A stretch of DNA of 64,000 bases from Cyanobacteriota bacterium. Lineage in GTDB: Bacteria; Cyanobacteriota; Cyanobacteriia; Thermostichales; Thermostichaceae. Shown here piece by piece: positions 39,850 to 62,973 of this stretch (position 1 is the stretch's first letter; the number at the start of each line of letters is the position of its first letter). Under the pieces are notes generated by a model. It saw nothing but the letters and a program-made list of their open reading frames with translations, did no database searches and was not told where the DNA came from. Where the stretch lies: assembly GCA_033764955.1 (NCBI GenBank), contig JANRIL010000011.1, positions 16,896 to 80,895 of the forward strand, in the 5' to 3' direction. Position numbers and translations under genes: made by a program.

Positions 39850-40644
39850 CTATAGCCCGGTGACACGACAGAGGATTTGCTGGCTGGCCAGAGTTTCAAA
39901 TTGGGATCGAATCGCTTTCGCAAATGTGGGGTTTTCAATCAGGATCCCTGCTTCGATGTTGCGTTGGTGGGCGGCTTCGGTGAAGTTAGCAGAGGTGATC
40001 AAGGTTCTTAATTCATCCACAACAAGACACTTGGCGTGGAGACAGGCATTCGCGGATGTAGTGGGATCCAGAGCGCGCGGATCATGAAAGACTTCCGGAA
40101 GGCGTGCACCAGGCCAGGACTGGCGGAAGTTATCCGTGAACTGCTTAATGATGGTCGAGGAAGGTGTTGGATCACTATACTTGCGTTGGATATTGATGAA
40201 AAGCCGGACTTGCAAATTGGGGATACTCTCCATGCGCTGGGCGAGGGGTTGAAAAAGTTCCCGCCCCTTACTGCCCCAGTCGATGGCAAAACTGGAGATC
40301 AGCAAGCTGTGCTGGGCTGTACGAAAGAGGTCTTTGACGACAACAGCAGTGTCGCGGCTTTCGGATCCTGGTAGCTCCGGGCCAGTCCAGACCAGATCAA
40401 ATGGCTCCCGATACAGAGACTGTTGCCCTTCCTCTGCCAGCAGGTTGAGCGAATAGGCGATGTGGTGAGGAGTCATACCCTTGTTGTGAAGGTGATTGAG
40501 TTCGCTGACGAAAAGGTGAACCAAATGGTCAGGTACCAGTCCGTTGAGGGAAATGGGTGTGCAGGGCAACAGGAGCCGTCGATGGCTCAAAGCTTCACTG
40601 AGGCTTTTAAGGGTTGGGCGGCTGAGGTGGTGAAAGGGAGACAT
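39850..40644 (-). CDS. drmC: phospholipase D-family (HKD) nuclease, DISARM DrmC-like
   Basis: HKD motif LHAKCLVVDELRTLITSANFT (about 40012-40040). The ATG overlaps the drmB stop (TAATG at 40644). Confidence 0.75.
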   Translation of the reverse strand: MSPFHHLSRPTLKSLSEALSHRRLLLPCTPISLNGLVPDHLVHLFVSELNHLHNKGMTPHHIAYSLNLLAEEGQQSLYREPFDLVWTGPELPGSESRDTAVVVKDLFRTAQHSLLISSFAIDWGSKGRELFQPLAQRMESIPNLQVRLFINIQRKYSDPTPSSTIIKQFTDNFRQSWPGARLPEVFHDPRALDPTTSANACLHAKCLVVDELRTLITSANFTEAAHQRNIEAGILIENPTFAKAIRSQFETLASQQILCRVTGL

Positions 40645-42545
40645 TAGATTAGGGTATCTAGGAAGAAAGCCGCTCCCAAGTTTTCCACTGTATTGACCAC
40701 CAGAGCGCGATCTAAAAGTTCGTTACGCCGTTCGCAAGACGTTTCCCCAATCAGGAGGCAGCCATGACAAGCAGCTCCGTGCAGGAATCGGTCTTCTTGA
40801 GGGTTATCCGGTTGGTGTTGGGCACAGACGGGATCATTGGAGCACAGGCGACCATAGTCCAAGGCTCTACTAAGATGATCTTCAATATGGCGACCAACAT
40901 CCACAAGCCCGCCTAAAGTCCCCTCGGATCCTGATGTGCCGGTGTGTAATAGGATCCCATAGCCAATTCCTGGAAAAACATAGATGCGTTCGCGAATGGC
41001 ACTGGAAGTGTAGCCACAATCCAGAGAAACACTGGTGATCAGTAGATGGGAAAGGGAATGTAGCATGATGTAGGGTGCGCCAGGGAAATCAAGTCTGTTT
41101 CGTGGGATCCCACGTTCATCTGCCCATTTCTCAAAGCCACGGATCAGGGTTTGGGCGCGTTGTTTGACAGGTTCACGTTGGAGCCAAGCCTCGATAGCCG
41201 CTGGTTTGAAACTGATGAAAACCCCTTCCCCCAAGTTCTCAATTGCCGGGATCCACTTGGGTTCAAAGTCAAGGCTGGCACGGCGGACACCGATGGCGAG
41301 TTCATCTTCAATTTCGCCGTTGATACTGGTGGGGGCTGATTCAAAGCGAGTAAAGCCAATCAGAGCAACGACTTCCCGTAGACGATGAACAAGGACGATT
41401 TTGTCAATGTAGGGATCCCAACGCGGATCAAGTTGGCTAGGGTGACGGGTAGCTCCATCAAAGATCTTGCTGGCGGGCGTAGGTCGGCCTTGTTCGAACG
41501 GACAGGCCAGTAAAGCTTCCAGTTCCACCTGTTTGATGCTCTTATCTTCAGGGATGGTGCCCTGCTTACGACGTTGCACTTCTTCCCAGACAGCCTTGGC
41601 TCCGAAGGAAACAAGATCTTTGAACTTGGGCTTTTTTAGTTCTTTTTGGATGTCAGTTGGGTCTTCGGCAAATTGCAGGTCTTCGGTGTAGAAGGGATCC
41701 ACAGCTTGGCGTAGTTCACTGTCGGGATCCGGCATAGAGATGACACTCAGCAATTGGCTAAAGTAGGCATTGCTGGCGGAGCGGATCAACAGGCGATTAT
41801 ATTCCGGTTTGTCACTGGGAAGCGGATTACCCTGTGGGTCAGGGATGTATTTGCAGCAGGGTTCTTGACCGCTGGATCGCAGCCAGGGGCGATAGCCTTC
41901 GCAGTAGCCCAAAACTTTGGAGTCTTTGAGTTTGGCTTGGGAAAGGGGGCGGCGTTTGCCGGTTTGCTCACAACGGACAAAGATTTCCTCAAAGTCGTTG
42001 CCGGATCCCGCTTCATCCAGCCACAGTTGTCCGCGAAGGGTGGTCTGAAAGTCGTTGTGCACGAATGCGTACCAGTTGATGTCGCTGAGATGCCCGTTGG
42101 GGCAGGCTTGTACAAACCGAACGGGCACAAATTGAACTTTTTTGCCTCTAAATTTACCCTCGGATTTGACCACACTCCAGGGGACGAGGGGACGGGTGCG
42201 ATAGGTTTTTCCATTAAACTCGAAGGGTTCATCCACTTGAGCGAGAAACCAGGCGGGAAAGACAAAGGCATCGACACCACTTTTTGGGGCTTGAGGATCC
42301 TGCGATTGGGTAGGTGGAGTGCGGAGTTGGATATCTTGTCCGTCATCCAGGTTGAGGGCACGAATCACTTTGGCACGGAGACGGTCTTCGCGGATGTACT
42401 GGGTTTCTCCTTTCCAGTAGGTTAGTCCAGAAATAATCACTGAACGGTCAGGCAGATCCACCATGGCACCAGGGCCAAATGTGGTCAGGAGTTGGCTTTG
42501 GCGTAGTTCGCTATCAGGGGGACGTTGTTTTGACTGTTTGCTCAT
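40644..42545 (-). CDS. drmB: DUF1998-domain protein, DISARM DrmB-like
   Basis: N-terminal QLLTTFGPGAMVDL and a C-terminal Zn-ribbon-like Cys cluster (CSNDPVCAQH...ACHGCLLIGETSCERRNELLDR) typical of DUF1998. The ATG at 42545 lies 2 nt after the drmA stop. Confidence 0.75.
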   Translation of the reverse strand: MSKQSKQRPPDSELRQSQLLTTFGPGAMVDLPDRSVIISGLTYWKGETQYIREDRLRAKVIRALNLDDGQDIQLRTPPTQSQDPQAPKSGVDAFVFPAWFLAQVDEPFEFNGKTYRTRPLVPWSVVKSEGKFRGKKVQFVPVRFVQACPNGHLSDINWYAFVHNDFQTTLRGQLWLDEAGSGNDFEEIFVRCEQTGKRRPLSQAKLKDSKVLGYCEGYRPWLRSSGQEPCCKYIPDPQGNPLPSDKPEYNRLLIRSASNAYFSQLLSVISMPDPDSELRQAVDPFYTEDLQFAEDPTDIQKELKKPKFKDLVSFGAKAVWEEVQRRKQGTIPEDKSIKQVELEALLACPFEQGRPTPASKIFDGATRHPSQLDPRWDPYIDKIVLVHRLREVVALIGFTRFESAPTSINGEIEDELAIGVRRASLDFEPKWIPAIENLGEGVFISFKPAAIEAWLQREPVKQRAQTLIRGFEKWADERGIPRNRLDFPGAPYIMLHSLSHLLITSVSLDCGYTSSAIRERIYVFPGIGYGILLHTGTSGSEGTLGGLVDVGRHIEDHLSRALDYGRLCSNDPVCAQHQPDNPQEDRFLHGAACHGCLLIGETSCERRNELLDRALVVNTVENLGAAFFLDTLI

Positions 42546-42547
42546 GA

Positions 42548-45500
42548 TTATTGCTCTCCATAGGGATCCCGAATCCAAACATTGACGGTGGCTTCCACGT
42601 CCCGAAGGCTACGGTGGGCCTTAAATTTGCGCCGTTCCAGATCAGTATCTGCTTGAGTGTCTAAGGCATCTACCAACAAAGGAGCCGCTAAATCGGTCTC
42701 GCTTTGATACTGCAGGCGAGTATCACGACCCAGGATCCGTTCCCAACTATCCAATAGGTCTAGCACCTGAGATCTTACTGATTGGCGGATTTGCTCCGTA
42801 TCAGTTTGGGTCAGATTTGGGTTGTGGGCTTCAGCACGTTCGGAGATGGTGGTCAGTAAAGCTTCGACGGCTTGGCGCTGGCTATTGATTTGAGAAGCTC
42901 CTAGGGGAGTTGTCATTGCTCGAATTCCAAGTCGAGCTAGAGCTACCGTTACCCCTGCCAGTCCACGATCCAGGGCACGGGGGGAGAAGGGAGTGACACT
43001 GGTGGCTTCAACAGAGCGGTAAAAACTGGTGTGCCAACTCTGAAATTGCTCGTAGTGGGAGCGATCGCGGGGGCGATGGACATTGAGTAAGGTGACGACT
43101 AATCCAGGGCGTTTGGGATCCCGTCCAACGCGGCTGGTGGCCTGAATATATTCAGAGGCATTTTTGGGTTGACCCAAGACCACCATCAGCCCCAACCGCA
43201 CGATATCCAGACCGACCGAGATCATATTGGTGGCGAGGGCAACATCCAGGCGGTCTTTCTCATAGAAGGGCATAGCCAGACGACGTTTAGTGTTGGCAAC
43301 TTTATTGGTTGGCACCCGTGAGGTTAGCTCTTCTAAGTCATCGTCGATTTTGCGATCCGCGAAAGAACCGGAGGATTCTCCATAGCGAAGGCGGTTACTA
43401 TAATTTCGCAATTGAGAACTCACTTCGTCTTCAATGATTCGACGACTTCCCCCCAATTCCCGTAGAGAGTTGAAGTATCCTAACAGCGTCATGTAGGGAT
43501 CCGCTGGGTTCTGTTGGTTACGGGATCCGCCCGCTTGCTCATATTCCTTTTGAGCAGCGGACATCAAAGCGAGATAGGCTCTCAGTAAAACCACTTTTAA
43601 GCTGCGTCCTTGAGCGGCAATGCCCACATAGAGGCGACCATCGGAGTCAAAATCTGTTTTGGCGAAAAAAGAATCGTGGCGATCTGGGCCTGGTGGTGGG
43701 AAGATTTCCACATGCTGGCGTCCAAAGAGGGCTTGGATCTGATGTGTGGCGCGGCGAACGGTAGCGGTGGAAGCAATGATCTTGGGACGTACCCTCAGCC
43801 TCTCTCCCTGAGAAGAGAGGAGTTCGGCGGTACAGAGGGCATCGATGGCGGTCTCGTAGAGTCCTACCATTGTTCCTAAGGGACCGGAGATGAGATGCAA
43901 CTCATCCTGGATGATCAAGTCTGGTGGGGGGAGATAACTGCTGAGGGGTTGTCCGGTGGGGGTGGGATCGGCTGTGCTACAGAAACCTTGCGTGGGGTCG
44001 AAGTGAGTGACCCGACCGAATAGGGCGGCGGTTTGCCCCACCCAGGGCAGTCCGGCAAATTTATCGACGGTGGCGATCATGAAGCAGGGGATCCGCCTAT
44101 AGATGGGTTCATCCACAGCTAGGATGGGGAGCGGGTTATGGCTGCGGAAATGGCAGGTACGGCTGACACAATGGACTTTGAGGTTGTTGGGTTGGTCTTC
44201 GCTGGGATGCAGTTGAAAGGAATTGGGGGTGAAGGATTCCCCACACCACGGGCAACGTTCTAGAGGAATGGGGGAGGGTTTGGCTTTGCTATCTCGCTTG
44301 TAGGCCAGGGTACGGGCACGGGCAGTGTTGTCGTCTTTGTCTTTACTGGATCCCATGCGGTTGGGGGTAGCACTTTGTCCGACCCAGAGACCAATCTCGA
44401 AAGGCCAGGATCCGAGTATTGCTTGATTGCTTTGCCGTTCTAGCTCCAAGGCGCAGATGAGGCGAGAAGCCCGTTCCAGTTGATCCAGGGTTAAAAGTCG
44501 CAAAGTGTAGCGCATCAAGACGCTCAGTCCGGCGGATTGGATCCCTGGGTGGGTAAGACGGCGCAAAATCAGGGTGAAGGCAGCTAGTCCCAGATAGGCT
44601 TCGGTTTTACCGCCACCCGTAGGGAAAAAGAGCAGATCAACTGCGCCTCGGTCGGGAGAGGTGGGATCCAGAATTCCCACCAGGTTGAGCAGGATATAGG
44701 CGATTTGGAAGGGTCGCCATTGGGGTGGAGCAAAACTTTCAGGGGGTAGGCTCTGCTCTTGACTCAGTTGTTGGCGGCGAGCACGGGCGATGACTTTGTT
44801 GGCTAGTCGAAAAGCTGTGAAGATGTTGGGGTCTGTCAGTGCATTCAGTCCAGCTTCGATGCGGTTGCAGGCGTAGTTGGCTCGATCCAACAAGTCTTGG
44901 GCAGCAGCGGTGAAACAGGGATCCAAATGGATTTGGCGTTGCGCCTGGATCCAATGGCGGTATTCGGTAACGAGGGATCCCAACATTTGTTGGATAGTGG
45001 CCGCATTAGTGGCATCCGCGAGGGCTTCCATGCCCAGTTGGAGATCCGGAATATCGGCGGGTTTGACACGGGGAACTTCGCCGGTGGGGATCCAGGCTGT
45101 TCGAATGGTGGTGCATTCACCCTGCGACAAGTCGCCGAGTGAGGCGCGAACGGTGACTTCAGCGGTGGCCGAGACGTTATGGCCCACTGCGTACTCGAAA
45201 TCGTGACGGTATTGCAGGCTGGCGACGGCTTCATCCCAATCATTGCTGTTTTCTCCACGGGGATCCCGACGCGGTTGAAATCCCTCAGAGCAGTGGAGAC
45301 TCAGTTGGGTTTGGAAACAAAAATCAGCGTCTTTGTTTTTGGTGTGACTGGGGCGATAGTTGACCACAAAACATGAGACAGAGCAAGTACCCACCGGAAA
45401 ACCCTGAGCATTAACTGGACGACAGGTGATCACCAGTTGTAGCCCACTGCCGTTGGGAATGTCGTAATGGTTGGGGGAGCCGGTTTGGATGCGGATAGGG

Positions 45501-45973
45501 ATTTCCAAGGTTGCCGATTGGGGGATCCGTTGCCAACGGTCAGGCTTGCGTTTTTTATCTGAACTGCCAGACTCGGTGTCTTCAGGGGTATCTGGGCTGG
45601 GATCCGGTTCTAAGGGCAGGTAGTCTGCCCAGGTCAGTGTGGCAGTTATGGCTTGAGTGGTTGGCTTGGTTAGGAAACTCAATCCCATTGAGGAAGGAAA
45701 CCAAGCTTTGCGGGCCGGAGCTTTATCGGAGAGTTGGCTATCTTCGCTGGTTTCACTATTGGCCAGGGATTCGAGTTCGTCATCGGCGGTGTCATCGGAG
45801 CGGATGTCGGGGGGTGCGCCGTAGGGAACCAGAAACCCTGTGAGATACCACTTAGAAGGATCCTGGGGCAAGATTTCGTGGGTGTAGTCGGGATCCTGGG
45901 GGGTGGGGCCGATGAGATCCAGATGGAGAGCTTGGATGAGCTTAGAGCGGACTTGAGCAGGTGTCGTTGACAT
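42548..45973 (-). CDS. drmA: large SF2 helicase, DISARM DrmA-like
   Basis: Walker A FFPTGGGKTEAYLG (about 44588-44632), DELH box IIQDELHLISGPLG, motif VI QATSRVGR. The ATG at 45973 was chosen; the longer ORF overlaps the PIN gene. Confidence 0.8.
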   Translation of the reverse strand: MSTTPAQVRSKLIQALHLDLIGPTPQDPDYTHEILPQDPSKWYLTGFLVPYGAPPDIRSDDTADDELESLANSETSEDSQLSDKAPARKAWFPSSMGLSFLTKPTTQAITATLTWADYLPLEPDPSPDTPEDTESGSSDKKRKPDRWQRIPQSATLEIPIRIQTGSPNHYDIPNGSGLQLVITCRPVNAQGFPVGTCSVSCFVVNYRPSHTKNKDADFCFQTQLSLHCSEGFQPRRDPRGENSNDWDEAVASLQYRHDFEYAVGHNVSATAEVTVRASLGDLSQGECTTIRTAWIPTGEVPRVKPADIPDLQLGMEALADATNAATIQQMLGSLVTEYRHWIQAQRQIHLDPCFTAAAQDLLDRANYACNRIEAGLNALTDPNIFTAFRLANKVIARARRQQLSQEQSLPPESFAPPQWRPFQIAYILLNLVGILDPTSPDRGAVDLLFFPTGGGKTEAYLGLAAFTLILRRLTHPGIQSAGLSVLMRYTLRLLTLDQLERASRLICALELERQSNQAILGSWPFEIGLWVGQSATPNRMGSSKDKDDNTARARTLAYKRDSKAKPSPIPLERCPWCGESFTPNSFQLHPSEDQPNNLKVHCVSRTCHFRSHNPLPILAVDEPIYRRIPCFMIATVDKFAGLPWVGQTAALFGRVTHFDPTQGFCSTADPTPTGQPLSSYLPPPDLIIQDELHLISGPLGTMVGLYETAIDALCTAELLSSQGERLRVRPKIIASTATVRRATHQIQALFGRQHVEIFPPPGPDRHDSFFAKTDFDSDGRLYVGIAAQGRSLKVVLLRAYLALMSAAQKEYEQAGGSRNQQNPADPYMTLLGYFNSLRELGGSRRIIEDEVSSQLRNYSNRLRYGESSGSFADRKIDDDLEELTSRVPTNKVANTKRRLAMPFYEKDRLDVALATNMISVGLDIVRLGLMVVLGQPKNASEYIQATSRVGRDPKRPGLVVTLLNVHRPRDRSHYEQFQSWHTSFYRSVEATSVTPFSPRALDRGLAGVTVALARLGIRAMTTPLGASQINSQRQAVEALLTTISERAEAHNPNLTQTDTEQIRQSVRSQVLDLLDSWERILGRDTRLQYQSETDLAAPLLVDALDTQADTDLERRKFKAHRSLRDVEATVNVWIRDPYGEQ

Positions 45974-45981: not shown

Positions 45982-46554
45982 CTAAATCTCGTAGCAAATC
46001 TGGCGGAGCATAGAAACGGATATCGGCAGTCCCTGTCTCAGCAGAATTTCCAGATGTTCTTCCACAGTCACGGGTGGATTGCATAACCGCTTTCTTACTG
46101 TTTCTACCACTTGAGCGATTTTGAATGGCTTCAAGTCTATGACAGAAGCAATAAACTCATCAGGGTGCTGTACCTCAATGTCGTAGGGAGCTAATGCCTG
46201 CTGTGGAAAGTCTTTGAGGTTGAAGGTGACAATCACATCCACTCCCCCTTGGATGGCAGCAGCAAGGACATGGCGATCCTCGGGATCCGGTAACTGTAGA
46301 GCAGGAATCAAGGATTCATAGCCTGTAATTAGACAGTCCCGAACATGACTATTCATTAAGTCCTTGGTGCGGGTGAGCTGCTCTAGTGTCAGGTCAGGGC
46401 GATCTTTGAGGACGTTCCGGATCCACTCCTCATGAATTTGATTTGTCCATTTGGCTCGGAAGAGATCAGTAAGGGCTAGCTGCATAAGAAGATCCCGCAG
46501 GGGAGCGGGATAAAGCACACAGGCATCATAGAGAGCTGTGTAGTTGGATGACAT
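45982..46554 (-). CDS. PIN-domain toxin (paired with an HTH antitoxin)
   Basis: ALYDACVLYPAPLRDLLMQLALTDLFRAKWTNQIHEEW..., a later acidic residue (DPEDRHVLAAAI) and FNLKDF are typical of PIN toxins that pair with excisionase-type HTH antitoxins. ATG at 46554. Confidence 0.7.
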   Translation of the reverse strand: MSSNYTALYDACVLYPAPLRDLLMQLALTDLFRAKWTNQIHEEWIRNVLKDRPDLTLEQLTRTKDLMNSHVRDCLITGYESLIPALQLPDPEDRHVLAAAIQGGVDVIVTFNLKDFPQQALAPYDIEVQHPDEFIASVIDLKPFKIAQVVETVRKRLCNPPVTVEEHLEILLRQGLPISVSMLRQICYEI

Positions 46555-46555: not shown

Positions 46556-47011
46556 CTAGTAGCCCATACCCAGTTCTTGGGCTTGGAGAACCAGATCATT
46601 GAGGGCTTGGGATCTGGCTGCGTCTGTTTTTTGCTTGTAAGCCATGAGGTCTTGGAAACAGATGCGGCGGTGTTTGCCGACCGTTCGATAGGGAATCTCG
46701 CCGGACTCTAGGAGTTTGATCAGGAAGGGACGGGAGACGTTGAGGATATCGGCGGATTCTTGGGTGGTGAGTTCGGCATGAATGGGAATGAGGGTGACGG
46801 CGTTGCCCTGTGCCATCTGAGCCAGGATATCGACCAAAAGGTGAAGGGCACTGGCAGGAATCTCGACGGTTTCTTCACTGCCATCCTCTTCAACGACTTT
46901 GAGTTGACGGGTAGCTCCACCCAGATGAGCCGACAGGATCCGGCTGCTGACTTGAGAGAGCTTAATTTCAGACTCCGTTGGTAGTTGGAGCCTTGGGCTG
47001 GAGATTGCCAT
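46556..47011 (-). CDS. excisionase-family helix-turn-helix antitoxin
   Basis: HTH_17-like segment LTTQESADILNVSRPFLIKLLESGEIPYRTVGKHRRICFQDLMAYK. The stop lies 1 nt before the PIN start. Confidence 0.7.
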   Translation of the reverse strand: MAISSPRLQLPTESEIKLSQVSSRILSAHLGGATRQLKVVEEDGSEETVEIPASALHLLVDILAQMAQGNAVTLIPIHAELTTQESADILNVSRPFLIKLLESGEIPYRTVGKHRRICFQDLMAYKQKTDAARSQALNDLVLQAQELGMGY

Positions 47012-47080: not shown

Positions 47081-47106
47081 CAGGCAAAACAAACCAATAA
47101 TCTGCG

Positions 47107-47259
47107 CTCCCTCAGGATCTGAGTGTTCAGGACAGCTTGGCCATTGCGGATGAGTTGATCCTGAGTTTCGTTTACGGTCTGGCGTTTTTTAGGATCAATG
47201 CTGTCATAAGCATCAATAAGGATATTGGTATCGAACTGCTTCGCAACGCTGACGCGAAC
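47107..47259 (-). pseudogene. 5' remnant of a PIN-domain (VapC-like) toxin gene
   Basis: The frame reads GFVRVSVAKQFDTNILIDAYDSIDPKKRQTVNETQDQLIRNGQAVLNTQILRE, with a PIN N-terminal FDTN motif. There is no in-frame start codon after the upstream stop, and similarity ends near 47105. Confidence 0.55.
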
Positions 47260-47265
47260 AAAACC

Positions 47266-47499
47266 TTAGTGCTGGTGTCGGTCATAGAGATCTTCTCGTT
47301 TCCAGTCACGACCTGAGGTTGTGCGACGGTTCAAGCTTTGGATAAACGCTTTCTGCTTTTCCCACACCTCGATCCTGGTTCGCTGATCAATGGGTTCAAC
47401 CAGGGTGAGTTCCACCGTTTGCCCCTCAAGGCTAGGATCTAGCTTTTCCGAAAGGATCAGGTTGCCGTCACGATAGGTTGCGGTCAGAATCTGACTCAT
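47266..47499 (-). CDS. AF2212/DUF104-like antitoxin
   Basis: MSQILTATYRDGNLILSEKLDPSLEGQTVELTLVE is the typical DUF104 antitoxin N-terminus. It is followed by the PIN remnant. Confidence 0.6.
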   Translation of the reverse strand: MSQILTATYRDGNLILSEKLDPSLEGQTVELTLVEPIDQRTRIEVWEKQKAFIQSLNRRTTSGRDWKREDLYDRHQH

Positions 47500-48702: not shown

Positions 48703-48737
48703 AATCCATGCTTTAGAGTGACAAAGTTTTTAGTGCT

Positions 48738-49154
48738 CTACGGCAATAACAAGTTTTGAAATGGTTGATTGTTTTTCCAGCGATACGTGTTGAAGTCTCG
48801 CTGATCGACTGAGAAAATGCGTCCGTGTCCTAAATGCTCAGCCAAAATCACTAGAGAAGCATCTGCCAAATCCATTGGTAAACTGGCATATTGCTTCATT
48901 AGTTTCGCAATTCTTGAACCAGATTCAGATGGTAAATCAAAAACATTAAAAAGTTTTTGGTGGTAATTGTTGATGAATGCGATTTGTGCCTGTACCCCTT
49001 TACGAGTAAGTAACAGATAACAAGTCTCAGTCATAACAGACCACGTTGTAATGAGAGATTCATCATAGGTTTGAAAAGCTTGATTGGCTGCTTCGTGATA
49101 CCTATCTTTTGCATCAGCGAGTGCCAACCAAAAACCCGTATCAACGATGATCAT
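48738..49154 (-). CDS. vapC: PIN-domain toxin VapC
   Basis: MIIVDTGFWLAL...TTWSVMTETCYLL...DLADASLVILAE...IFSVDQRDF, with the four acidic PIN positions recognisable. Confidence 0.8.
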   Translation of the reverse strand: MIIVDTGFWLALADAKDRYHEAANQAFQTYDESLITTWSVMTETCYLLLTRKGVQAQIAFINNYHQKLFNVFDLPSESGSRIAKLMKQYASLPMDLADASLVILAEHLGHGRIFSVDQRDFNTYRWKNNQPFQNLLLP

Positions 49155-49398
49155 ATTTTGTATTCCATCCCTCTGAAAGCACTTGTTTATAGTCTGTAGA
49201 AAGATTTTCTTCTACAGAGACACAACCAATAAATCCGCTCTCTTTGAATTTCTGATAGGAACTGTCCTCAGCGTTTGCTTTCGATTGATCTACCTGCGGA
49301 TATCGCTTTTTCAGGATTTCAATAAAATCCATCAGCAATAGTTGAGCCTCTTCAGGCAAGGCTTGAATATCTTGTTGCATCTGTTCCAGGCTAGACAT
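49141..49398 (-). CDS. VapB-type antitoxin (DUF2281-like)
   Basis: MSSLEQMQQDIQALPEEAQLLLMDFIEILKKRY is a typical small antitoxin. It overlaps vapC by 14 nt, and its ATG shares one base with the stop of the truncated methyltransferase ORF (TAATG at 49396-49400). Confidence 0.65.
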   Translation of the reverse strand: MSSLEQMQQDIQALPEEAQLLLMDFIEILKKRYPQVDQSKANAEDSSYQKFKESGFIGCVSVEENLSTDYKQVLSEGWNTKYDHR

Positions 49399-55200: not shown

Positions 55201-58200
55201 TTCATGATTACTTGAGAGATGGAAGAGGCTAAAGATCTAGAGTCTTTCTGATTTTCTGATGGATCGATTTTTGTTAAAGCTGTGGAGAACTCTGGAATTG
55301 AAATATCTGAATTGGCAAAATCAATCTCAGGTACAGGAACTCCACTGATAGTAAAACTGTTTGATTCAAACAAGCTTAGTAAAGCTCTTGCAACTGTAGC
55401 AGTCAGATCAGATCCCTGACTATATTGTTTCAAATTATCGGCTTTTAATTCTACTTTGAGTAATCCTGGCAAATAAGCACAAATTGTTAATCGCTCTGAA
55501 TACTCTAACCAAAATAAATATCGCCTCAGAGCATCTTCTTTAAAACTTCCAAATTCATCTATAGGGATAATAGCAATAGGATTCTCACCTTGAATTAAGG
55601 GTCTGGCTTCTGCAACAATCTCTATCCAAAGTTCTCGCAACTGAGGCACGGTGATCCGGTTTAGTTGAATCAAGGATTGTGTAGTGTCAAAGTCACCAGG
55701 TGCAAATAGTAGCTTTCCTTGAACATACTCTAAGCTAGCAGCTTCTCGACTTTCCTTGTTACGACCAATTCTACCGACTTCTTGCAAGTAATCTTCTAAA
55801 TAATTTGGCGGTGACAAATGCAAGCACCAATGAATATGAGCGATATCCATACCCATGCCAAAGGCTTTAGTACAAACTAGTACTTTTATTTCGTGATCTA
55901 GAAAACTATGATAGAGTTCGATCCGCAGATCGGCAGATAATCCGGCATGGAAATAATCTACTTGACAATCTATTTCTTCTCTTTCATTTATTAACTTAAC
56001 TAGTTCTTCTGCATGCCGCCTACGCGTAACGAAAATAATGACACTGCTACGTGAGAGATCTGCAGATCGAATTATATTCTCGACGTAACCCAAACGAGGA
56101 GATAGGGATTCAGATTGAGCAGAAAAAGTGACTTCAACATTTTCAGCAGTTAGTTGAATGAAAGGCTGAATAGGATGTCGTATTTTCTCTGGGCGAAGGA
56201 CGTAGGTATTTTGATTTGCATCGATCTCCTGCTCTAGATCCTTACGAACAATCTCTGTGATAGTTGCAGAAAATAGCAAGACCGGAATCAACTCTCCATT
56301 AGGTTGATGTCGATAAAAATGTCGAATCTCTCGCGTAGCGAATAAATAGTCAGGTCGAAATTCAAAACCCCACTGACTTACACAATGCGCCTCATCAATG
56401 ACGATGTATTCAAAACCTTGATCAAACTCAAATCGTCGCTGAATAGCCTCTCGAAAACGTGGGATTCGAAACCGTTCTGGAGCGACAAATAAAAGTTTGA
56501 TGCGGTTATCAATAATCCCTTGATAAACTTCTGATGTCTGCCAGGGATCGCGATCTCCACTGAGATAATCAACTGATTGAATAAACCCTTTGCGCCACAA
56601 GGTATTCACTTGATCCGCCATCAAAGCTCGTAACGGTGAGATTACTAGGGTGAGGCGTTGGGTAAACGCACCGCGTAGTAGAGCTGGAATATGAAACAGT
56701 ACGGACTTACCTTCACCCGTTGGGAGCCTGACTAGTACATCTTGGGTACGGGTAATGATTGCCTCGATGGCTGGCTTTTGGGTTCCTTCTCGAAAGTCCA
56801 GGTAGCCCCAATGAGCTTGCAAAAACTGTCGATAGCTTTCGTAATCTGTCGGGGGATCCCGTCGCTCAATATCGCCTAGTATATTTCGTAAAGTTTCTAA
56901 CAGTCGCTCCGGTTGCTTGAGTTTTGCCAGAGGAATCTCCCGGATAAGAATTCTTTTTTCTTGCCCCAGGGAGAGGTGGCTGAGACGGCTATCCAAAATT
57001 ATTGGCACACATGAGGGATCCTTAAACTGAAAACGAGTCCATAGCCAGGGGCCCAAGTGACGCTCAATCGCGATAGTCATTGCTGAAGCAGAAATCTGCA
57101 CTGGTAAAAGGGTAGTTCTATCCCCTCCTCCCTGACGCTCACTCTGAAGTTCTTCATCCTCGTCTAGATTTGCCCCATCTCCCTCATATCCGTCTTCGGC
57201 TTCATTCAGTATTAAATCCGGATCATTCTCTTGCTGAGCTTGGTCGAGTAGCCACCACTCCTCTAATGGCAACGCTTCAATCAGGGGTAACACCTTGCAC
57301 CCTAAAGTGGCAGCCGCATCCAAAAACCGATCCACCTGGTCTATAGCCGATATCACTAACGGTTTGCTCCGCCGCCGTACTTTTTCAAAATGTCGTAGTA
57401 TCGACCCTCCCGATCGTTCAATTGTCAGTCCCAAAGTCGCTATTGCTTGTTCAATGGCTCTTGCTTCCCCCGCCTCATCCACCAGTAATAACAGCATCAC
57501 ATCGGGATCCGTCTGATAATGCACCGACAAAACCCGCAGCAGCAAATCATCCCAATAGCGAAGCCGATTACCAGAACCCGGTGATAGTCCTTCCCGAATT
57601 CCACCGGGATCCTTCCAGCGGGGCAATATCACCTCCCACTGACTGCTGTAGTTATGAGGTGTGACATCTTCAGACTGCTGGATCTTTTCAAATAAATCCG
57701 CCAGATCGGCTCCCAGCAGCCGCAAAGCCCAGGGAAACTGCCGCTCTTGTCGACCCCGCAGTGGGTCATACTCTAGCCAACAGTGGAGTGGTTTCTTATC
57801 TACTCCCCACTGGAATAAATCAACTCCTTCTGGAATGTTGAACAGCATCCGCCCTGCCAAATCAGACGTTTGGGAAATCAGGGATCCTAGTCCCTGCCTA
57901 ACTTTTTCCGTCGATAAGGGTTCTAGGTGTATCCTCTCAAAGATTCCTTCCTCTGGATACAGAGGGATAATGTCTTCTGGGATTGGCAGATTTATTGGCA
58001 AATCATGATAGGCTATTGCCCCTATAACTCCATCTCCTGATTCTCCAGCAGTGATTGGATTGTCTATAGCTTCGTAGAGTAACGAATCTAGCCCTTCCCT
58101 TAACCACATTGGAATCATCCGGAGCACCACTTGAACCTGTTGACGCTCTGCCTGACGCACCACTACTGCCACGGCTCGTAGATCCCGTCGCTCAGGATGA

Positions 58201-59693
58201 GCTTCCACCAACCGCCCCAATTTCACCGCGGATAAAGAGGGAGACCCTCGATGTACTACGCCAACGCGCCAAGCCCACTCTCGCCACTGCCGCCATTCCG
58301 GTATGACGAAATCCCCAGTTCTACGATACTCATTTGGCATTGAGGGAAAAATCTGTTTCTCTAACACCTCTGGGTGCTCATAGAGATAGTCAATCGGATC
58401 CTGAGGTTGTTCCAACCAGTGACAATAGTCTCGATCTGATAGAGTTAAGCACTTTACTTGCTCTTGGAAAAGCTTTAGAGCTGCCACCGCATCTGCATCT
58501 GCCTGATGTGCTCGTTCCGAAGTCAGCAAGGCATGGCGACTGTTCCAGGGAGTTAGGATCCAAGACATTAATAAGGTGTCCCAAACAGGGATCCCGCTGG
58601 CAAAATCACTGTTTAACTGCTCCAAAATCGGCAGATCCCATGCTAGGATATTGTGTCCCACCAGCCAACCTGGGTTATCTGATGCTCCAACTTTATGCAA
58701 TAGAGTGCGGATCTCGAGTAAATGGGATTGGATCTTAATTTCTACATCTGAATTATCTTGAGAGTTTGGCTGAAAATACTCTAAATGAGTCCCGGACTCA
58801 GTTGCCCAACCCAACTGAAAGATCCTTTGCCCATCACTTTCTAAATCCACCGAAACCGCTGATATCTCAAGCCGTTTCTGAAAACATTGCTTGATATCCA
58901 GATACCCTTGTTTCATCAGCTTAATTAACTCTTGTGAGCTAGCTTGCTGAGCACAAAATGTTTCTATTCTCTTGAATGATTGATGTTCCCAAACTTCCTG
59001 TAGTTGATTATAAATCTGAAATAAATCAGAAAGTTTTAACCCTTCAAAAAACTGAATAGAGCGATTATTGAGTTGAGCGTAACTCTCTCTCAGTAACTGC
59101 TGCTTCTGATTTTCATTGATCGCAAAGAAAGGAGAATTAGCTTTAGCACCCAGATATCTGTGCCAATCAGTAAAACTGGTGAGTTTTGGCTCAAACTCTA
59201 ATAGAAAATCACGTAACTGCGGATCCTCATCCAAACTCAGTCGTCGCTGCGGGGTTTGATAATGAGATTTTTTATCTTTTGTCCAAAGATGTATGTACCA
59301 TTCAGCCTGTAAAATCTTTAGTACCTCTTTTAATGTCCATCTTTGCATGGCCTGCAATCGATTTTCAGAGTAATTCTCCAGAGAGCCTTGTATATCTTCT
59401 TCAAGGATCCAAGAGATTGCTGATTGACGTATTTTCCTATTCTGGTGATCATGTGGTGTCACTCCAATGACAAAAAGACAACGTTGCCCACTGAGATCCT
59501 GACCACCTAAAATTCTCCGATCTTGTGATCCAGCATACGTAGTGATGTGTGTAAATAGGTCGTCGGTTAGATCTGGAGCAGAAATCACGCCGCAATCTTT
59601 CTTATTCCACTTACTTAAGTGTCCCACCCGCCCATAGCGGTAATAGAGATTTTTTAGGGTGGATACGTTAGATGAGAATGATGGGTTAGTCAC
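52212..59693 (-). CDS. 2,493-aa fusion protein: unknown N-domain, DEDDh 3'-5' exonuclease, RecQ-type helicase, UvrD/Rep-type helicase
   Basis: Exonuclease motifs: VDLESDG (58830-58850), GHNILAWDLPIL (about 58622-58670), AHQADADAV (about 58480-58511). RecQ-type motifs: LPTGEGKS (56702-56727), VIDEAHC (56383-56405), QEVGRIGRN (about 55745-55786). UvrD-type motifs: AGPGAGKTH (53961-53990), LVDEFQDMN (about 53616-53660), YVAVTRAK (52621-52670). GTG start. There are 12 nt between its stop and the drmMI ATG. Confidence 0.8.
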   Translation of the reverse strand: MTNPSFSSNVSTLKNLYYRYGRVGHLSKWNKKDCGVISAPDLTDDLFTHITTYAGSQDRRILGGQDLSGQRCLFVIGVTPHDHQNRKIRQSAISWILEEDIQGSLENYSENRLQAMQRWTLKEVLKILQAEWYIHLWTKDKKSHYQTPQRRLSLDEDPQLRDFLLEFEPKLTSFTDWHRYLGAKANSPFFAINENQKQQLLRESYAQLNNRSIQFFEGLKLSDLFQIYNQLQEVWEHQSFKRIETFCAQQASSQELIKLMKQGYLDIKQCFQKRLEISAVSVDLESDGQRIFQLGWATESGTHLEYFQPNSQDNSDVEIKIQSHLLEIRTLLHKVGASDNPGWLVGHNILAWDLPILEQLNSDFASGIPVWDTLLMSWILTPWNSRHALLTSERAHQADADAVAALKLFQEQVKCLTLSDRDYCHWLEQPQDPIDYLYEHPEVLEKQIFPSMPNEYRRTGDFVIPEWRQWREWAWRVGVVHRGSPSLSAVKLGRLVEAHPERRDLRAVAVVVRQAERQQVQVVLRMIPMWLREGLDSLLYEAIDNPITAGESGDGVIGAIAYHDLPINLPIPEDIIPLYPEEGIFERIHLEPLSTEKVRQGLGSLISQTSDLAGRMLFNIPEGVDLFQWGVDKKPLHCWLEYDPLRGRQERQFPWALRLLGADLADLFEKIQQSEDVTPHNYSSQWEVILPRWKDPGGIREGLSPGSGNRLRYWDDLLLRVLSVHYQTDPDVMLLLLVDEAGEARAIEQAIATLGLTIERSGGSILRHFEKVRRRSKPLVISAIDQVDRFLDAAATLGCKVLPLIEALPLEEWWLLDQAQQENDPDLILNEAEDGYEGDGANLDEDEELQSERQGGGDRTTLLPVQISASAMTIAIERHLGPWLWTRFQFKDPSCVPIILDSRLSHLSLGQEKRILIREIPLAKLKQPERLLETLRNILGDIERRDPPTDYESYRQFLQAHWGYLDFREGTQKPAIEAIITRTQDVLVRLPTGEGKSVLFHIPALLRGAFTQRLTLVISPLRALMADQVNTLWRKGFIQSVDYLSGDRDPWQTSEVYQGIIDNRIKLLFVAPERFRIPRFREAIQRRFEFDQGFEYIVIDEAHCVSQWGFEFRPDYLFATREIRHFYRHQPNGELIPVLLFSATITEIVRKDLEQEIDANQNTYVLRPEKIRHPIQPFIQLTAENVEVTFSAQSESLSPRLGYVENIIRSADLSRSSVIIFVTRRRHAEELVKLINEREEIDCQVDYFHAGLSADLRIELYHSFLDHEIKVLVCTKAFGMGMDIAHIHWCLHLSPPNYLEDYLQEVGRIGRNKESREAASLEYVQGKLLFAPGDFDTTQSLIQLNRITVPQLRELWIEIVAEARPLIQGENPIAIIPIDEFGSFKEDALRRYLFWLEYSERLTICAYLPGLLKVELKADNLKQYSQGSDLTATVARALLSLFESNSFTISGVPVPEIDFANSDISIPEFSTALTKIDPSENQKDSRSLASSISQVIMNVAKGVLGFFFGQSLADQRSTSLPISQLTGIQTTITSSSREPIDLGTESNDERTTNDKWTTVDLSLDNLWRHSQLRQMDQVWTGILKLSQVGALKINRKIQFKKGHYHDMQEQQFKWLRKILNIVNQKAKQPRLYWDDLISDLSADLQQESMTATWSERKIKDAQKRVVRSVVKLLRDILIRFDENISDNQTIFYSYHLTPKWIEKAKLILEISQALLTILNKEPANQNEIDLTLDELLKCCPKAVKIKPLQSAIKLISNLGIYSASNEITTFSYILEILKPDQIETDREQMHPLDQKMIKTIDDLNNMALRRAQAMELYAYLPDSLRAGYIDRYFEADSLTALEKVIDSTIGEIDDDILEVNPALKQIQGRVREEAIHQAKECLNPQQKDVCEHPYNQNLLVNAGPGAGKTHVLMMRCADLIYRQGLQPHEILVLAFNRAVVYEIKKRVRDLFKQLGYGSFVRRMQVYTFHSFALKSLSDVRDRNNDLKVTLHNFALAMQTDEALRNRVSANYKAILVDEFQDMNEDFYKVILALYQGSGAGVVVIGDDDQDILLWTRKRGDRLHANQYLQDFRIDYQSDVINLLVNYRSTFDIIQRSQVLATNLIPNRVKANITLQAYRDENGIIDHQIIEDVDPKCPRLVNLAQEVMAYNCVNIEHPKSMAVLCRTNSEVFQFYNLLQNSNVKPLRIQSNNNLKLAQVREIGEWIDLCQTYLSQEPDPGLTSSIWDELLEQYRQLVLADVNYGIESIEQLRSLTFVEYESYSTLSQHLAMIQDLKTSDFTRLSQSLSNRDPGITISTIHKVKGLEFDVVYVPSSITTFPFMDKDDGDNFEGHGNNILDSAAEEARLYYVAVTRAKNELYFDWGPREKAWSKKQAFQGINQQVLRLEGSPDEVFISWPGFKEQYNDGLQDYLRTHVRINDSVVIKNRRQVLHGQRIIGYLQADLYGNDQSQIRVSNIYRYPVSVEITPEKYYKQLAPEIKTQGWHYTVLLAGQL

Positions 59694-59751: not shown

Positions 59752-62700
59752 CTAATTAGAGATCGGCCAGAGATAAATTAACCCTACTGGTTCCACTCGT
59801 TCCGCCTTCACCCTATAAGTTTTCTGAATCCGATCTGGTTCTGTTTGGATCTCTTGCTCTAACTGGCTGAGGCGGATTTCCCAGTGACGGTGATCGGCGT
59901 TAATTTGTCGCAATTCATCCGCATTGAATAACCCCAGTTGGATCGTCTCAAATTTGCTCTTTTCTTTGAGGATCCGATCTCGTTGCTCTTGTAAAAGTTC
60001 TTTCATTTCCTTGGCTTCAGACTCTCCTCGCTGGTTGAGTTTACGCTGAGCGCGTTCACTCAGTTCCTTGGCCCGCCGCTCCAAATGAGGGATCAGATCC
60101 TGGACGTCTTGGGGGGCAACCCCTTTGAGCTTCTCCAGCACTGGGGGTGGCACTTCCCGTAGGCGAGGGCTGGCGAGGGAATCCTCTAAAATCTGCAAAA
60201 CATCCTTCTTTTCGCCCTCAGTAACAGGTCTTAAACGGCCCCGACCTCTGGCCTCAGGATCCACCCATTCAGCGGCCACAGTGATGATTTCATCATGCAA
60301 ACGAGCTGCCCGTTCCCCGTACAGCGATAACCGTCCCAAGATCACCACTCGAGGAATGGGATCCTCACTGCGACAGACACAGGCGCGGCTGAGTTCGTGG
60401 TGCAAAAATCCCTGGGAGAGGAACCGTCCCAATAGCCGTTGCACAATGCGGTGCTCTAAATGCAGATGCACCACCTCACCATCCAGGGATCCTGGATCTT
60501 TGAAGACTACCGGACGAATGGGGGCTTCTTTCCGCCAGTCCCAGAGTTTCTGGGTCTTCTGGCGTGGTTGCCTTAGACTGTCAAGAGTCATCGCCCAGGT
60601 GGGATCCGCACCGGCTTCTTGATCGAGAGCAGGCAACAGCCAACGGGAACGTTCATTGTCACCGATGGCTTCCTGGGCAGAGAGAGGCTTGAGGGGTTGG
60701 GATCCGAGTAGCTCCAATGAAACGGACAGAGCCTCTCGAAAATGGCGATCATCCAATCCTAACCATTGCTGCGAGTCACGAAGCATGGTTTCCAACTCCA
60801 CCTGTTGCTGTCGGAGTTTGTCCTGGCGAAGGCGAATGGCTTCCAGTTCTTCCCGAATTGCGCCGCGCCGCTCATCATCGTTGTCTTTGTCGGCCTGGTT
60901 TATAGCGGAGCTGAGACTATCAACCTCGGTTACTCGGATCCCTCGCTCCAACAACTTGGTGACGTTCTTCTCCACCACCGGGGAGAGGCTACCCAATTCT
61001 TCCTGGATCCGTTGGGTCTTTTGCACCAGCACATCCATCACCCTGTCTTCAGGGCGCTGGGGTAAGACGAAGTAATAGCAACGGACTTCAGTCTGTCGCT
61101 GGAGTTTGCGGTCAATCCGCCCATTGCGCTGTTCCATGCGGCTGGGGTTCCAGGGCACATCAAAGTGAAACAGATCTGCACAGTGATTTTGTAGGTTTAC
61201 CCCCTCACGGGCAGCGTCGGTGGCAATGAGAATCCGCAAGGGATGTTTGTGGGGATCCATGTTGAAGGCTTCTTTGATTAAGCGGCGATCCTCTTTACTC
61301 ATCCCGCCATGAAATGTACCAATCCGGTCATAATCACGGTCGGATCCGGCAATCAAAGAGCTTAACTGTTGTTCCAAATAGCGCTTGGTATCAGCGTATT
61401 CGGTGAAAATTAGTACCCGTGTAGGCATCCATGCTGCTCCTGGGGATCCCATCTTGGGGCAGAGGTTTTGACGGATCCAGTCGCCTAATTTTTTGACTTT
61501 GCTATCAGGTTGGTGGCGGCTTCGCTCAGCAATCTGGGTCATCTCTTCTAACAGTTCAAGTTCTTTTGAGGTGATGCCCTCGGTTCCGGAGCGGCTGGCC
61601 TTTTCCATCTGAGCCGTTTCTTCTGCAAAGACTTCCAGTTCATCAAGATCGGCTCGCTCGTCATCGGAGCCTGGAGATTCCCATAACAGGGGATAGGATT
61701 GCTGGGTTTCCGGGACTACTTTTTCTAACTGCTTTTGGATCCCGCGTCGGTGAACCCTCAAAGTGCAAGCAAACGCTTCGATAGAGGACATTAGCCGCTT
61801 TTGCAAAGAGGTGATCACCAACATGGACGTCGTTAGGGTGGAGCGGGGAGCTGATTTCAGCCGTTCCTCTCGGCAGGTTCTATACTCCTGCAGCAGTTGA
61901 GCCAGCGTTAACTCTGGGACATCATCCGGCAATCCATCAATCACTACGGGTACGACATGACGCAATGGAAAATCAGCGTTATTAATTTCTCGTAGATCCT
62001 GCTTAAGACGACGAACCATCACCGCATCCAGCAGTTTCTTGCTCCGTACAGGCACCCCTCGACAAAATCGCTGCGGATCCAAAATTTCTAAAAGCGCCGC
62101 AAAGCTATTGGAGTGTCCGTTGTGAGGGGTGGCAGACAAGAAGAGCCGATGTTCAAAGCGAGGAGCCAATTCCCGCACTGTGCGAGTGAGTTGGGAGTCA
62201 ATGGCATAGCGGGTTCCACTGGCGGGGGCAGCATTGTGAGCTTCGTCGAGGATGAGTAGGGATCCTGGGGCAAAGTCCTGCATCCAGTCTCGTAAGGGTG
62301 CAGCGTAGGTTTCATCCCGCAATAGTGCGTGGGAGATGATAAATCGATTGTGGGTTTTCCATGGGTTCATGCCGTAGCCCCTTTCTCGACGCTTGGCCGC
62401 CACAAAATCTCGGTCATAAACAATGAAGGTGAGCCCAAAGCGGCTCTCCATCTCATCTTTCCACTGATCCACCACTGAGGGTGGGCAAGAGATCACGACC
62501 CGCTTCACCTTCTGCCGCATCAGCATCTCTCGCAGGATCAGTCCAGCCTCTATGGTTTTGCCTAAGCCCACATCATCAGCGATGAACAGATTTACCCTTG
62601 GCATTTTCAAGGCTTTACGAAGGGGTTCTAGCTGGTAAGCTTTGACCTCAATCCCAGCTCGGTAAGGAGCTTGAAAAAGTTTGGGTTCAGTGGAAGTGAC

Positions 62701-62973
62701 ACAGTTCCACCTCAGAGCGTGCAGAAATGCAGAAAATTGGCGAGGTTGATCAAAGCCCCGTTGAGTGACCTGTTCCCAGGAAGAGGTGGCCAAGATCTGG
62801 GCATCAATTTCCCTTTGCCAGAATACATTTAGAGGCTCACCCTGAGCATCGTCTTCCAAACAAGCCAGCCTCACCTGGGTATCCCCTGTGGGGGATGGGA
62901 TAACCTCCTCAACGAGATATTGACGGGAGCGGATTCTAACTATCTGACCCAGTTCTGGAGAGATTGAGTGCAC
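59752..62973 (-). CDS. drmD: SNF2-family helicase, DISARM DrmD-like
   Basis: DDVGLGKTIEAG (about 62548-62583), LILDEAHNAA, ILIATDAAREGVNLQ, DVPWNPSRMEQRNGRIDR. GTG start. Confidence 0.8.
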   Translation of the reverse strand: MHSISPELGQIVRIRSRQYLVEEVIPSPTGDTQVRLACLEDDAQGEPLNVFWQREIDAQILATSSWEQVTQRGFDQPRQFSAFLHALRWNCVTSTEPKLFQAPYRAGIEVKAYQLEPLRKALKMPRVNLFIADDVGLGKTIEAGLILREMLMRQKVKRVVISCPPSVVDQWKDEMESRFGLTFIVYDRDFVAAKRRERGYGMNPWKTHNRFIISHALLRDETYAAPLRDWMQDFAPGSLLILDEAHNAAPASGTRYAIDSQLTRTVRELAPRFEHRLFLSATPHNGHSNSFAALLEILDPQRFCRGVPVRSKKLLDAVMVRRLKQDLREINNADFPLRHVVPVVIDGLPDDVPELTLAQLLQEYRTCREERLKSAPRSTLTTSMLVITSLQKRLMSSIEAFACTLRVHRRGIQKQLEKVVPETQQSYPLLWESPGSDDERADLDELEVFAEETAQMEKASRSGTEGITSKELELLEEMTQIAERSRHQPDSKVKKLGDWIRQNLCPKMGSPGAAWMPTRVLIFTEYADTKRYLEQQLSSLIAGSDRDYDRIGTFHGGMSKEDRRLIKEAFNMDPHKHPLRILIATDAAREGVNLQNHCADLFHFDVPWNPSRMEQRNGRIDRKLQRQTEVRCYYFVLPQRPEDRVMDVLVQKTQRIQEELGSLSPVVEKNVTKLLERGIRVTEVDSLSSAINQADKDNDDERRGAIREELEAIRLRQDKLRQQQVELETMLRDSQQWLGLDDRHFREALSVSLELLGSQPLKPLSAQEAIGDNERSRWLLPALDQEAGADPTWAMTLDSLRQPRQKTQKLWDWRKEAPIRPVVFKDPGSLDGEVVHLHLEHRIVQRLLGRFLSQGFLHHELSRACVCRSEDPIPRVVILGRLSLYGERAARLHDEIITVAAEWVDPEARGRGRLRPVTEGEKKDVLQILEDSLASPRLREVPPPVLEKLKGVAPQDVQDLIPHLERRAKELSERAQRKLNQRGESEAKEMKELLQEQRDRILKEKSKFETIQLGLFNADELRQINADHRHWEIRLSQLEQEIQTEPDRIQKTYRVKAERVEPVGLIYLWPISN

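Follow-up and report, generated by a model that had tools for sequence, protein, structure and literature searches.

The 64,000-nucleotide stretch of cyanobacterial DNA analysed here (contig JANRIL010000011.1 of assembly GCA_033764955.1, Thermostichaceae; hereafter the window) carries on its minus strand, at 39850-62973, what is, as read from its genes, a complete class 1 DISARM operon, well preserved and unusually loaded with passengers. Ofir et al. reportedly defined DISARM in 2018. The published definition of class 1 places drmD and drmMI ahead of a drmA-drmB-drmC triplet, and this is the arrangement found in the window. The explanation that we consider very probable is that an intact class 1 DISARM is carried as cargo on a tRNA-Phe island, with interchangeable passengers nested at three junctions around or within its methylase gene, drmMI.

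Identity of the five DISARM genes

The 39850-62973 region is an unbroken run of co-oriented open reading frames (ORFs) in which drmD, drmMI, drmA, drmB, and drmC stand in canonical order, and the identity of each gene was taken from three independent profile libraries, Pfam, NCBIfam, and PADLOC-DB v2.0.0. The first gene, drmD (59752-62973, minus strand, as are the genes, hairpin, and tRNA fragment of the window given below), encodes a 1073-residue SNF2-type helicase that matches PADLOC PDLC02621 (E = 0), Pfam SNF2-rel_dom, and NCBIfam DISARM_DrmD (1165.8 bits against a cut-off of 610), with intact GLGKT and DEAH motifs. An N6-adenine methyltransferase gene, as class 1 requires, lies between drmD and drmA; this is drmMI, present as two ORFs that both match PADLOC DrmMI (N part, E = 0; C part, E = 2e-170). 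The 1141-residue helicase DrmA (42548-45973) matches NCBIfam DISARM_DrmAS at 1208.9 bits (cut-off 950) and PADLOC DrmA at E = 2e-292, retains GGGKT (Walker A) and DELH motifs, corresponds to the helicase (Helicase_C) expected of class 1 DISARM, and aligns with its orthologues across residues 1-1139. A drmA start at 46084 was considered and rejected; the most likely start is the ATG at 45973, 9 nt past the stop of the gene before it. The 633-residue DUF1998/MZB protein DrmB (40644-42545) scores 30.8 bits against Pfam MZB/PF09369 (cut-off 24.2) and 569 against NCBIfam DrmB_fam (cut-off 240), and the 264-residue PLD-family nuclease DrmC (39850-40644) scores 43.8 against PLDc_2 (PF13091; cut-off 27) and 184 against NCBIfam DISARM_DrmC_I (cut-off 133), with the HxK(x)4D motif present as HAKCLVVD. 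Alignments with cyanobacterial orthologues cover nearly the whole of each DISARM protein.

A sequence-only reading of this DNA had placed all five components on the minus strand in canonical order, and each of them passes curated DISARM profiles and keeps its catalytic motifs. The DUF1998 and PLD assignments of that reading were confirmed by Pfam and NCBIfam searches above the cut-offs, and all of the profile tests that it had named beforehand as a possible refutation were positive for DISARM. The tight coupling that it described for the last three genes is also present, with 2 nt between drmA and drmB and a 1-nt overlap (TAATG) between drmB and drmC, given a drmB start at ATG 42545, the point at which the orthologue alignments begin. 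Its figure of about 11 kb for the extra material has to be lowered, as the core DISARM genes account for 13,320 bp of the 23,124-bp span and the remainder is ~9.8 kb.

The locus agrees with the class 1 DISARM described from Serratia sp. SCBI (Aparicio-Maldonado et al., bioRxiv 10.1101/2021.12.28.474362) in all five genes, in their order and single-strand arrangement, and in their Pfam domains. Unlike the Serratia system, it has a split drmMI, no drmMII, a short-type DrmA (NCBIfam DrmAS), and 9.8 kb of nested genes, and it resides in a cyanobacterial host on a tRNA-Phe island.

Insertion hot spots and the divided methylase

A scan of one genome per species provided a comparison set of 80 loci with a drmMI relative, in which all named taxa are cyanobacterial, and the window's proteins were mapped onto these loci; the number of scorable loci differed by junction (72, 72, 63, 52, and 37, following the order of the operon). 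In 39 of 72 loci no more than 21 bp separate drmD from drmMI, and in 17 this junction holds an insert of at least 679 bp, the largest being 3153 bp, versus 7552 bp in this window, which makes the latter insert the largest of 73. Within drmMI, the N and C parts are contiguous in 61 of 72 loci and split by at least 654 bp in 10 (largest 2516 bp; 695 bp here), while the drmMI/drmA junction is tight (at most 222 bp) in 20 of 63 loci and carries an insert of at least 677 bp in 41 (largest 8523 bp; 1556 bp here). No inserts were found at the remaining two junctions: the drmA/drmB gap is at most 293 bp in all 52 loci (2 bp here), and that between drmB and drmC at most 17 bp in all 37 (a 1-nt overlap here). 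The same three junctions around drmMI are thus insertion hot spots, and drmA-drmB-drmC is never interrupted among the 80 loci.

In its canonical form, for example in Nostoc and Calothrix, the operon is compact (~13.4 kb), with drmD and drmMI 17 bp apart, drmMI encoding a single chain, and ~55 bp before drmA. The 34 loci wholly within the compared DNA span 13.0-17.2 kb (median 13.7 kb) versus 23.1 kb in the window; we estimate the longest incompletely covered loci at ~22-23.5 kb, which puts 23.1 kb at the top of the range but not alone there. The earlier description of an expanded, composite locus was right, and the expansion is exceptional in degree, but in kind it is unexceptional among the 80 cyanobacterial loci. 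The ORFs found in the gaps belong mostly to toxin-antitoxin (TA) or defence families, including DUF433/DUF5615, PIN/DUF2281, PemK/MazE, Uma2, XisH/XisI, HepT/nucleotidyltransferase (NTP_transf_2), HipA_2/DUF3037, GmrSD, and AAA_21; transposases are few. All 28 candidate ORFs at the intragenic drmMI site point the same way as the operon, and so do 116 of the 142 before drmA. In the window all inserted ORFs lie on the minus strand between drmD and drmA and count as embedded genes, and nesting of this kind is also seen across the 80 related loci.

The drmMI N part (49398-52199, 933 aa) comprises an N-terminal region and the N6-adenine methyltransferase domain, with Pfam Eco57I, MmeI_Mtase, and N6_Mtase matches and intact motifs I (DLAMGSAAF) and IV (NPPF). 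It matches PADLOC PDLC02643 over positions 7-988 of 1347, and also PDLC02638 (E = 0), a 935-position model that fits the N part alone. The 390-aa ORF at 47530-48702 continues the PDLC02643 match over positions 988-1335 of 1347 (E = 7e-123) and carries a Pfam MmeI_TRD match of 61 bits; by these profiles it is the C-terminal target recognition domain (TRD) part of drmMI and no extra gene. The two ORFs are divided exactly at the methylase/TRD junction by a putative VapBC pair. The stop of the N part overlaps the ATG of vapB (TAATG), vapB overlaps vapC, and the TRD ORF begins with its own ATG 35 nt further on. A fusion of the antitoxin to the methylase was considered and is inapplicable here, vapB being a separate ORF that overlaps the drmMI-N stop.

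The division is not peculiar to the window, as all split loci share the same split position at the level of the residue. In split alleles '...AAVVVSxVHI[MW]K' stands just before the end of the N part and 'LDGKPVEKITAF' just after the start of the C part, while unsplit alleles read through this point ('...VVSVxNIFKGxYxxxKxLNG...'). With a family relative, G010, added to the 10 split loci among the 72 scorable ones, 11 relatives are split at the identical point, which is occupied by at least four types of cassette in different loci: VapB/PIN in the window, L021, L077, and L089; the same VapB N-terminus joined to a PemK toxin (DUF2281-like/PemK) in L020, from Pantanalinema rosaneae; DUF433/DUF5615 in L022, L025, L030, L086, and G010; and RHH/PIN in L099. 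The split alleles group in a single clade (100% support) together with two unsplit alleles. Among alleles sharing the VapBC split, the ratio of nonsynonymous to synonymous divergence (dN/dS) is ~0.10 in the N part and 0.14-0.20 in the TRD part at a dS of 0.65-1.2, which shows both halves to be under purifying selection. These low ratios among alleles with a shared split, together with the single supported clade, argue that the two-ORF state is old, heritable, and functional.

Several loci of the comparison set illustrate how this part of the operon varies. At the split site of L020 (12829-13549, P. rosaneae CENA516), the antitoxin matches the window's VapB at 91% identity over its residues 1-68 and differs from it thereafter, and the toxin is of the PemK/MazF type instead of PIN; the toxin has apparently been swapped in place, leaving a hybrid antitoxin behind. 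At about residue 600, the drmMI genes of L074 (7528-8118), L077 (2517-3161), and L086 (5740-6465) contain insertions of 591, 645, and 726 bp, respectively; each length is a multiple of 3, and the reading frame continues through them without a stop. The insertions consist of palindromic units such as CCCCCTCTCCAC..GTGGAGAGGGGG and look like a repeat element tolerated within coding sequence. In L031 (14311-15419), an intact drmMI is closely followed by extra pieces of its methylase end and of the TRD, which could be remnants of cassette exchange or a reserve of TRD segments like those used in programmed inversion; programmed variation of DrmMI specificity through inversion has already been published.

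Nested genes, island, and mosaic history

The sequence-only reading had counted three interleaved TA modules; all three sites are present, but one of the modules has decayed. The vapB-like antitoxin gene within drmMI (49141-49398, 85 aa) is recognized by its layout and by weak, sub-threshold matches to DUF2281 (18.7 bits versus 26.5) and TA_VapB (20.2 versus 60), with orthologues 73-91% identical at the same site in L020, L021, L077, and L089. Its partner vapC (48738-49154, 138 aa), whose start overlaps the end of vapB, encodes a PIN toxin (Pfam PIN, 36.5 bits versus 23.6) with orthologues 78-84% identical in L021, L077, and L089. A PIN gene preceded by an overlapping small gene fits the layout of type II VapBC systems, and both genes are constrained (dN/dS of 0.06-0.13 for vapB). 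Downstream of the TRD ORF lies the decayed pair: a 77-aa ORF (47266-47499) without a Pfam match, read from its sequence as an antitoxin that we take to be DUF104-like, and a remnant of its PIN partner at ~47100-47262 ('FDTNILIDAYD...') that lacks a start codon and meets a stop after ~50 codons. The third module consists of an HTH_17 antitoxin-like gene (46556-47011, 151 aa; Pfam HTH_17, 47 bits) and a PIN_3 toxin gene (45982-46554, 190 aa; Pfam PIN_3, 35.5 bits) whose stop lies 9 nt before the drmA ATG; the toxin also reaches 136.7 bits against NCBIfam RSP_2648_fam_PIN, below the cut-off of 170.

The giant fusion gene that had been noted is present between drmD and drmMI, at 52212-59693, and encodes 2493 residues if translation begins at a GTG codon (2416 with the recorded start). 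Its Pfam matches are to DEAD, Helicase_C, UvrD-helicase, and UvrD_C, and three domains can be placed on the protein: a DnaQ-like exonuclease at about residues 280-410, a RecQ-like superfamily 2 (SF2) helicase at about 950-1330, and a UvrD-like superfamily 1 (SF1) helicase at about 1880-2370. Pfam and PDB sequence searches found nothing in the N-terminal (residues 1-950), linker, and C-terminal regions. The exonuclease domain was recognized because a family alignment and a fold search identified it where these sequence searches were empty: the D, E, D, H, and D residues of the DEDDh pattern are invariant in a 35-member alignment, and an AlphaFold (AF2) model of residues 240-480, with a predicted local distance difference test score (pLDDT) of 86.6, retrieved as its best match the exonuclease domain of Staphylococcus aureus DinG (PDB 9ii8, E = 6e-5), followed by a TREX1 homologue and other DnaQ-fold exonucleases. 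As in S. aureus DinG, a DnaQ-like exonuclease domain is fused to a DNA helicase; unlike DinG, the giant protein has two helicase modules, both from other families (RecQ-like SF2 and UvrD-like SF1), and ~1500 more residues without a family match. It falls below the RecQ family cut-offs (TIGR00614 recQ_fam, 190.9 versus 219.8 bits; recQ, 217.8 versus 640), and PADLOC returned partial DpdF, PsyrT, and GajB matches only, with no full-length model. As judged from these matches, the protein has only the core of a RecQ-like helicase and belongs to a family of its own. That family exceeds 1000 proteins of ~2400 residues with the same RecQ-like and UvrD-like layout in many phyla, and the best match to the window's protein is 42% identical, in Synechocystis sp. 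LKSZ1.

Neither the 80 DISARM loci nor the 40 relatives searched contain the giant gene. In the window it simply fills an intergenic spacer, with no repeats or target duplications at its flanks. Its homologues stand alone, and three of the four contexts examined are those of a defence system or mobile element. In a metagenome-assembled genome of the Pontiellaceae (L100 1-6466), an integrative element that also encodes ArdC and RadC carries a homologue 3.5 kb downstream of a PLD-SNF2 helicase and an Eco57I-type methylase of 1252 aa; the family is thus found for a second time next to an SNF2/methylase pair. The other neighbourhoods contain DUF499/BrxC-type genes, recombinases, or housekeeping genes on both sides. 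We consider the giant gene best read as an independent, horizontally acquired passenger and a candidate defence gene, not a DISARM component.

The operon lies on a mobile element that can be traced through the tRNA-Phe(GAA) gene. Three exact copies of its 3' end occur on the contig in the same orientation, of which the one farthest from the window lies inside an intact tRNA-Phe gene. The copy in the window (39383-39427), a short way downstream of drmC, is a 45-nt fragment that forms the island's distal attachment (att) repeat. As only this 3' fragment is there, a scan for tRNA genes in the window came back empty; the intact gene is 83 kb away on the contig. The direct repeats correspond to 48 nt of the tRNA-Phe 3' end and delimit two tandem islands. 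The island that holds DISARM is 40.9 kb long, with a tyrosine integrase adjoining its upstream (middle) repeat, and DISARM occupies its distal 56%; it also holds a primase-helicase-like gene, a UvrD-like helicase, an S24/HTH repressor, and FRG and DUF3768 genes. The second tandem island, of ~42 kb (contig C14 97294-139507), has the same 48-nt repeat and lies between the DISARM island and the intact tRNA-Phe gene.

Within the operon, parts of different ages can be told apart by a short palindrome. GGATCC, the core of GGGATCCC, is a highly iterated palindrome of the host lineage, common to relatives G007, G010, and G013, and occurs 231 times in the window, or once per 277 bp, ~15 times the random expectation; blocks free of it mark recent imports. 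It is found at host density in drmD, drmA, drmB, drmC, and the HTH/PIN_3 pair, and the DISARM loci of family relatives contain 3-5 copies per kb. The 3967 bp at 47609-51575, which cover the drmMI core, vapBC, and most of the TRD, contain none (a Poisson chance of ~6e-7 by our own estimate) and have 11 copies of CGATCG (2.8 per kb). The Pantanalinema, J069, and L021 loci have 1.5-2.9 CGATCG and ~0.04 GGATCC per kb. Nucleotide identity to P. rosaneae CENA516 is 88.5% over 51785-49199 versus 69% over drmD, and dS is 0.65 for drmMI-N and saturated for drmD. Taken together, identity, dS, and the densities of the two palindromes indicate that the methylase core, VapBC, and most of the TRD were recently imported by recombination within drmMI from a Pantanalinema-like donor, an exchange that probably changed specificity. 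A second AT-rich block without GGATCC lies within the giant gene (53826-56853; none in 3028 bp, GC 0.38-0.42). By the same measure, drmD, drmA, drmB, drmC, and the HTH/PIN_3 pair are old residents and the locus is a mosaic of different ages; the pair is placed among the residents because G013, a relative from another genus, has it in the same position directly upstream of drmA with amino acid identities of 80% (HTH_17) and 74% (PIN_3).

At the 3' end of the operon, the hairpin and T-tract that had been described after drmC were found at 39750-39774, 76 nt 3' of the gene. The 9-bp stem (39754-39774) is followed by TTTT and has a folding energy of -15.7 kcal/mol (z = -4.67 versus shuffles), making it a candidate operon terminator, with a T-tract short of the 5-T threshold of the consensus terminator scan. 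Directly upstream of drmD, three small co-oriented ORFs occupy 63220-63999 on the minus strand (76 aa, 85 aa, and one running off the end of the window); none has a family match, and no BrxR/WYL-type regulator was seen.

Proposed mechanism, alternatives, and significance

In the explanation that we favour, an intact DISARM with nested cargo, DrmMI would mark host DNA through N6-adenine methylation and a DrmA-DrmB helicase complex would act on incoming DNA, with DrmD and DrmC as accessories; these roles are carried over from the published Serratia and Bacillus systems. The operon would then provide anti-phage and anti-plasmid defence. The passengers, tightly packed and co-oriented (the giant gene between drmD and drmMI, VapBC within the drmMI linker, and the decayed TA pair and HTH/PIN_3 before drmA), would be interchangeable cargo and not fixed DISARM parts, most likely adding independent layers of abortive infection or addiction under one transcription unit. 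DrmMI would be made as two polypeptides, one catalytic and one conferring specificity, that cooperate in the manner of type I or BcgI-like enzymes. Type I restriction-modification (RM) systems (HsdM with HsdS) and BcgI-like type IIB enzymes have a separate specificity subunit. The split DrmMI resembles them in that the catalytic and target-recognition parts are separate polypeptides; unlike them, it belongs to a single-chain MmeI/Eco57I-like family, with 61 of 72 orthologues made as a single chain.

Some observations weigh against this explanation. Consensus scans for promoters and terminators gave no excess over shuffles inside the operon and are uninformative, and the 7.5-kb insert between drmD and drmMI could disturb expression of the operon. 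The split drmMI N part of G010 is also frameshifted, so some split loci do decay, and we know of no system in which a two-part DrmMI is at work.

The embedded toxins and giant helicase might instead be wired into DISARM and not be mere passengers, which we regard as unlikely. The PrrC anticodon nuclease is embedded in the EcoprrI type Ic RM locus and physically controlled by the RM enzyme; like PrrC, the window's toxins are latent toxin genes nested in an RM-type operon, but they have their own antitoxins. Translation of vapB could be coupled to that of drmMI through the TAATG overlap, in which case shutdown or inhibition of the operon by a phage would lead to decay of the labile antitoxin and release VapC as an abortive-infection backstop; in another form of the idea, the TA pairs would make a non-addictive methylase module hard to lose. 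Such wiring is consistent with the recurrence of TA cassettes at the same three junctions across many loci, with the invariant co-orientation of the intragenic ORFs, and with the stop-start overlaps that run through drmMI-N, vapB, and vapC. It also accords with the published finding that class 1 DISARM without its methylases shows no autoimmunity, and hence no self-addiction, and with the PrrC/type I RM precedent cited in bioRxiv 10.1101/2024.01.29.577857. However, cassette families vary between closely related loci and 61 of 72 loci have no intragenic cassette, so no specific partner is required; one TA pair of this locus has already decayed; and the giant gene is unique to this locus. Equally tentative is our suggestion that the DrmMI methylase/TRD linker is a dedicated, heritable docking site, with interchangeable TA cassettes translated in series with the methylase and monitoring expression of the two-subunit DrmMI, and with the giant gene recruited through embedding as a new single-gene defence. 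If true, the toxin of the linker cassette would act as a fail-safe against the silencing of DISARM by a phage, or would supply the addiction that the methylase itself lacks.

Less probable still is that DISARM is decaying here, the VapBC insertion having broken drmMI and left the system non-functional. Certainly a stop and 0.7 kb of foreign genes interrupt drmMI, the neighbouring TA pair has decayed, and a relative's split drmMI is frameshifted. Against this, both halves are intact ORFs with their own start in the window and the 11 relatives, apart from the N part of L025 and G010 with its stop or frameshifts; the dN/dS ratios of both halves are low among alleles sharing the split; the catalytic motifs are all intact; and the other four DISARM genes are full length. 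We give almost no credence to a related YprA/DUF1998 system (Druantia, ARMADA, or Dpd), into which the sequence-only reading had allowed that the genes might group: drmD partially matches DpdE and BrxHII and the giant gene DpdF in PADLOC and NCBIfam, and ARMADA also unites an SNF2-like helicase, a PglX-like methylase, and a YprA helicase, but the DISARM equivalog cut-offs are passed while DpdE (188 bits versus 500) and DpdF (173 versus 550) fall far below theirs, and the helicase and DUF1998 protein are separate genes, not a fused YprA helicase-DUF1998, followed by a PLD gene as in the DISARM core triplet.

Intact class 1 DISARM with nested passengers fits a pattern described by Payne et al. 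in 2024, who found embedded genes to be frequent in BREX, DISARM, type I RM, and Hma systems, 96.7% of these genes being co-oriented, and used embedding to discover new defences (bioRxiv 10.1101/2024.01.29.577857). The window resembles those systems in having co-oriented passenger defence genes nested in a methylation-based system, and the GmrSD-like, ABC-ATPase, and PIN passengers of related loci extend the likeness; unlike them, it has one cassette inside a gene, at a domain boundary. Split loci may have been missed in that survey because systems with pseudogenes were excluded (bioRxiv 10.1101/2024.01.29.577857). As gene nesting within DISARM was already published in 2024, the locus is a well-documented variant of which the split methylase is the less familiar part, and current views are not overturned. 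What it adds is intragenic nesting that yields a two-part DrmMI kept under selection in one clade, a quantitative map of insertion hot spots in cyanobacterial class 1 DISARM, and a dated recombinational swap of the methylase module. Through 'guilt by embedding', it also nominates the widespread ~2400-residue exonuclease/RecQ/UvrD family as a candidate defence. More generally, the locus suggests that a MmeI-like methylase of the single-chain type can be maintained as two genes with a TA pair between them, which is relevant to the exchange of specificity modules and to the reasons for the accumulation of toxins in methylation-based defence operons.

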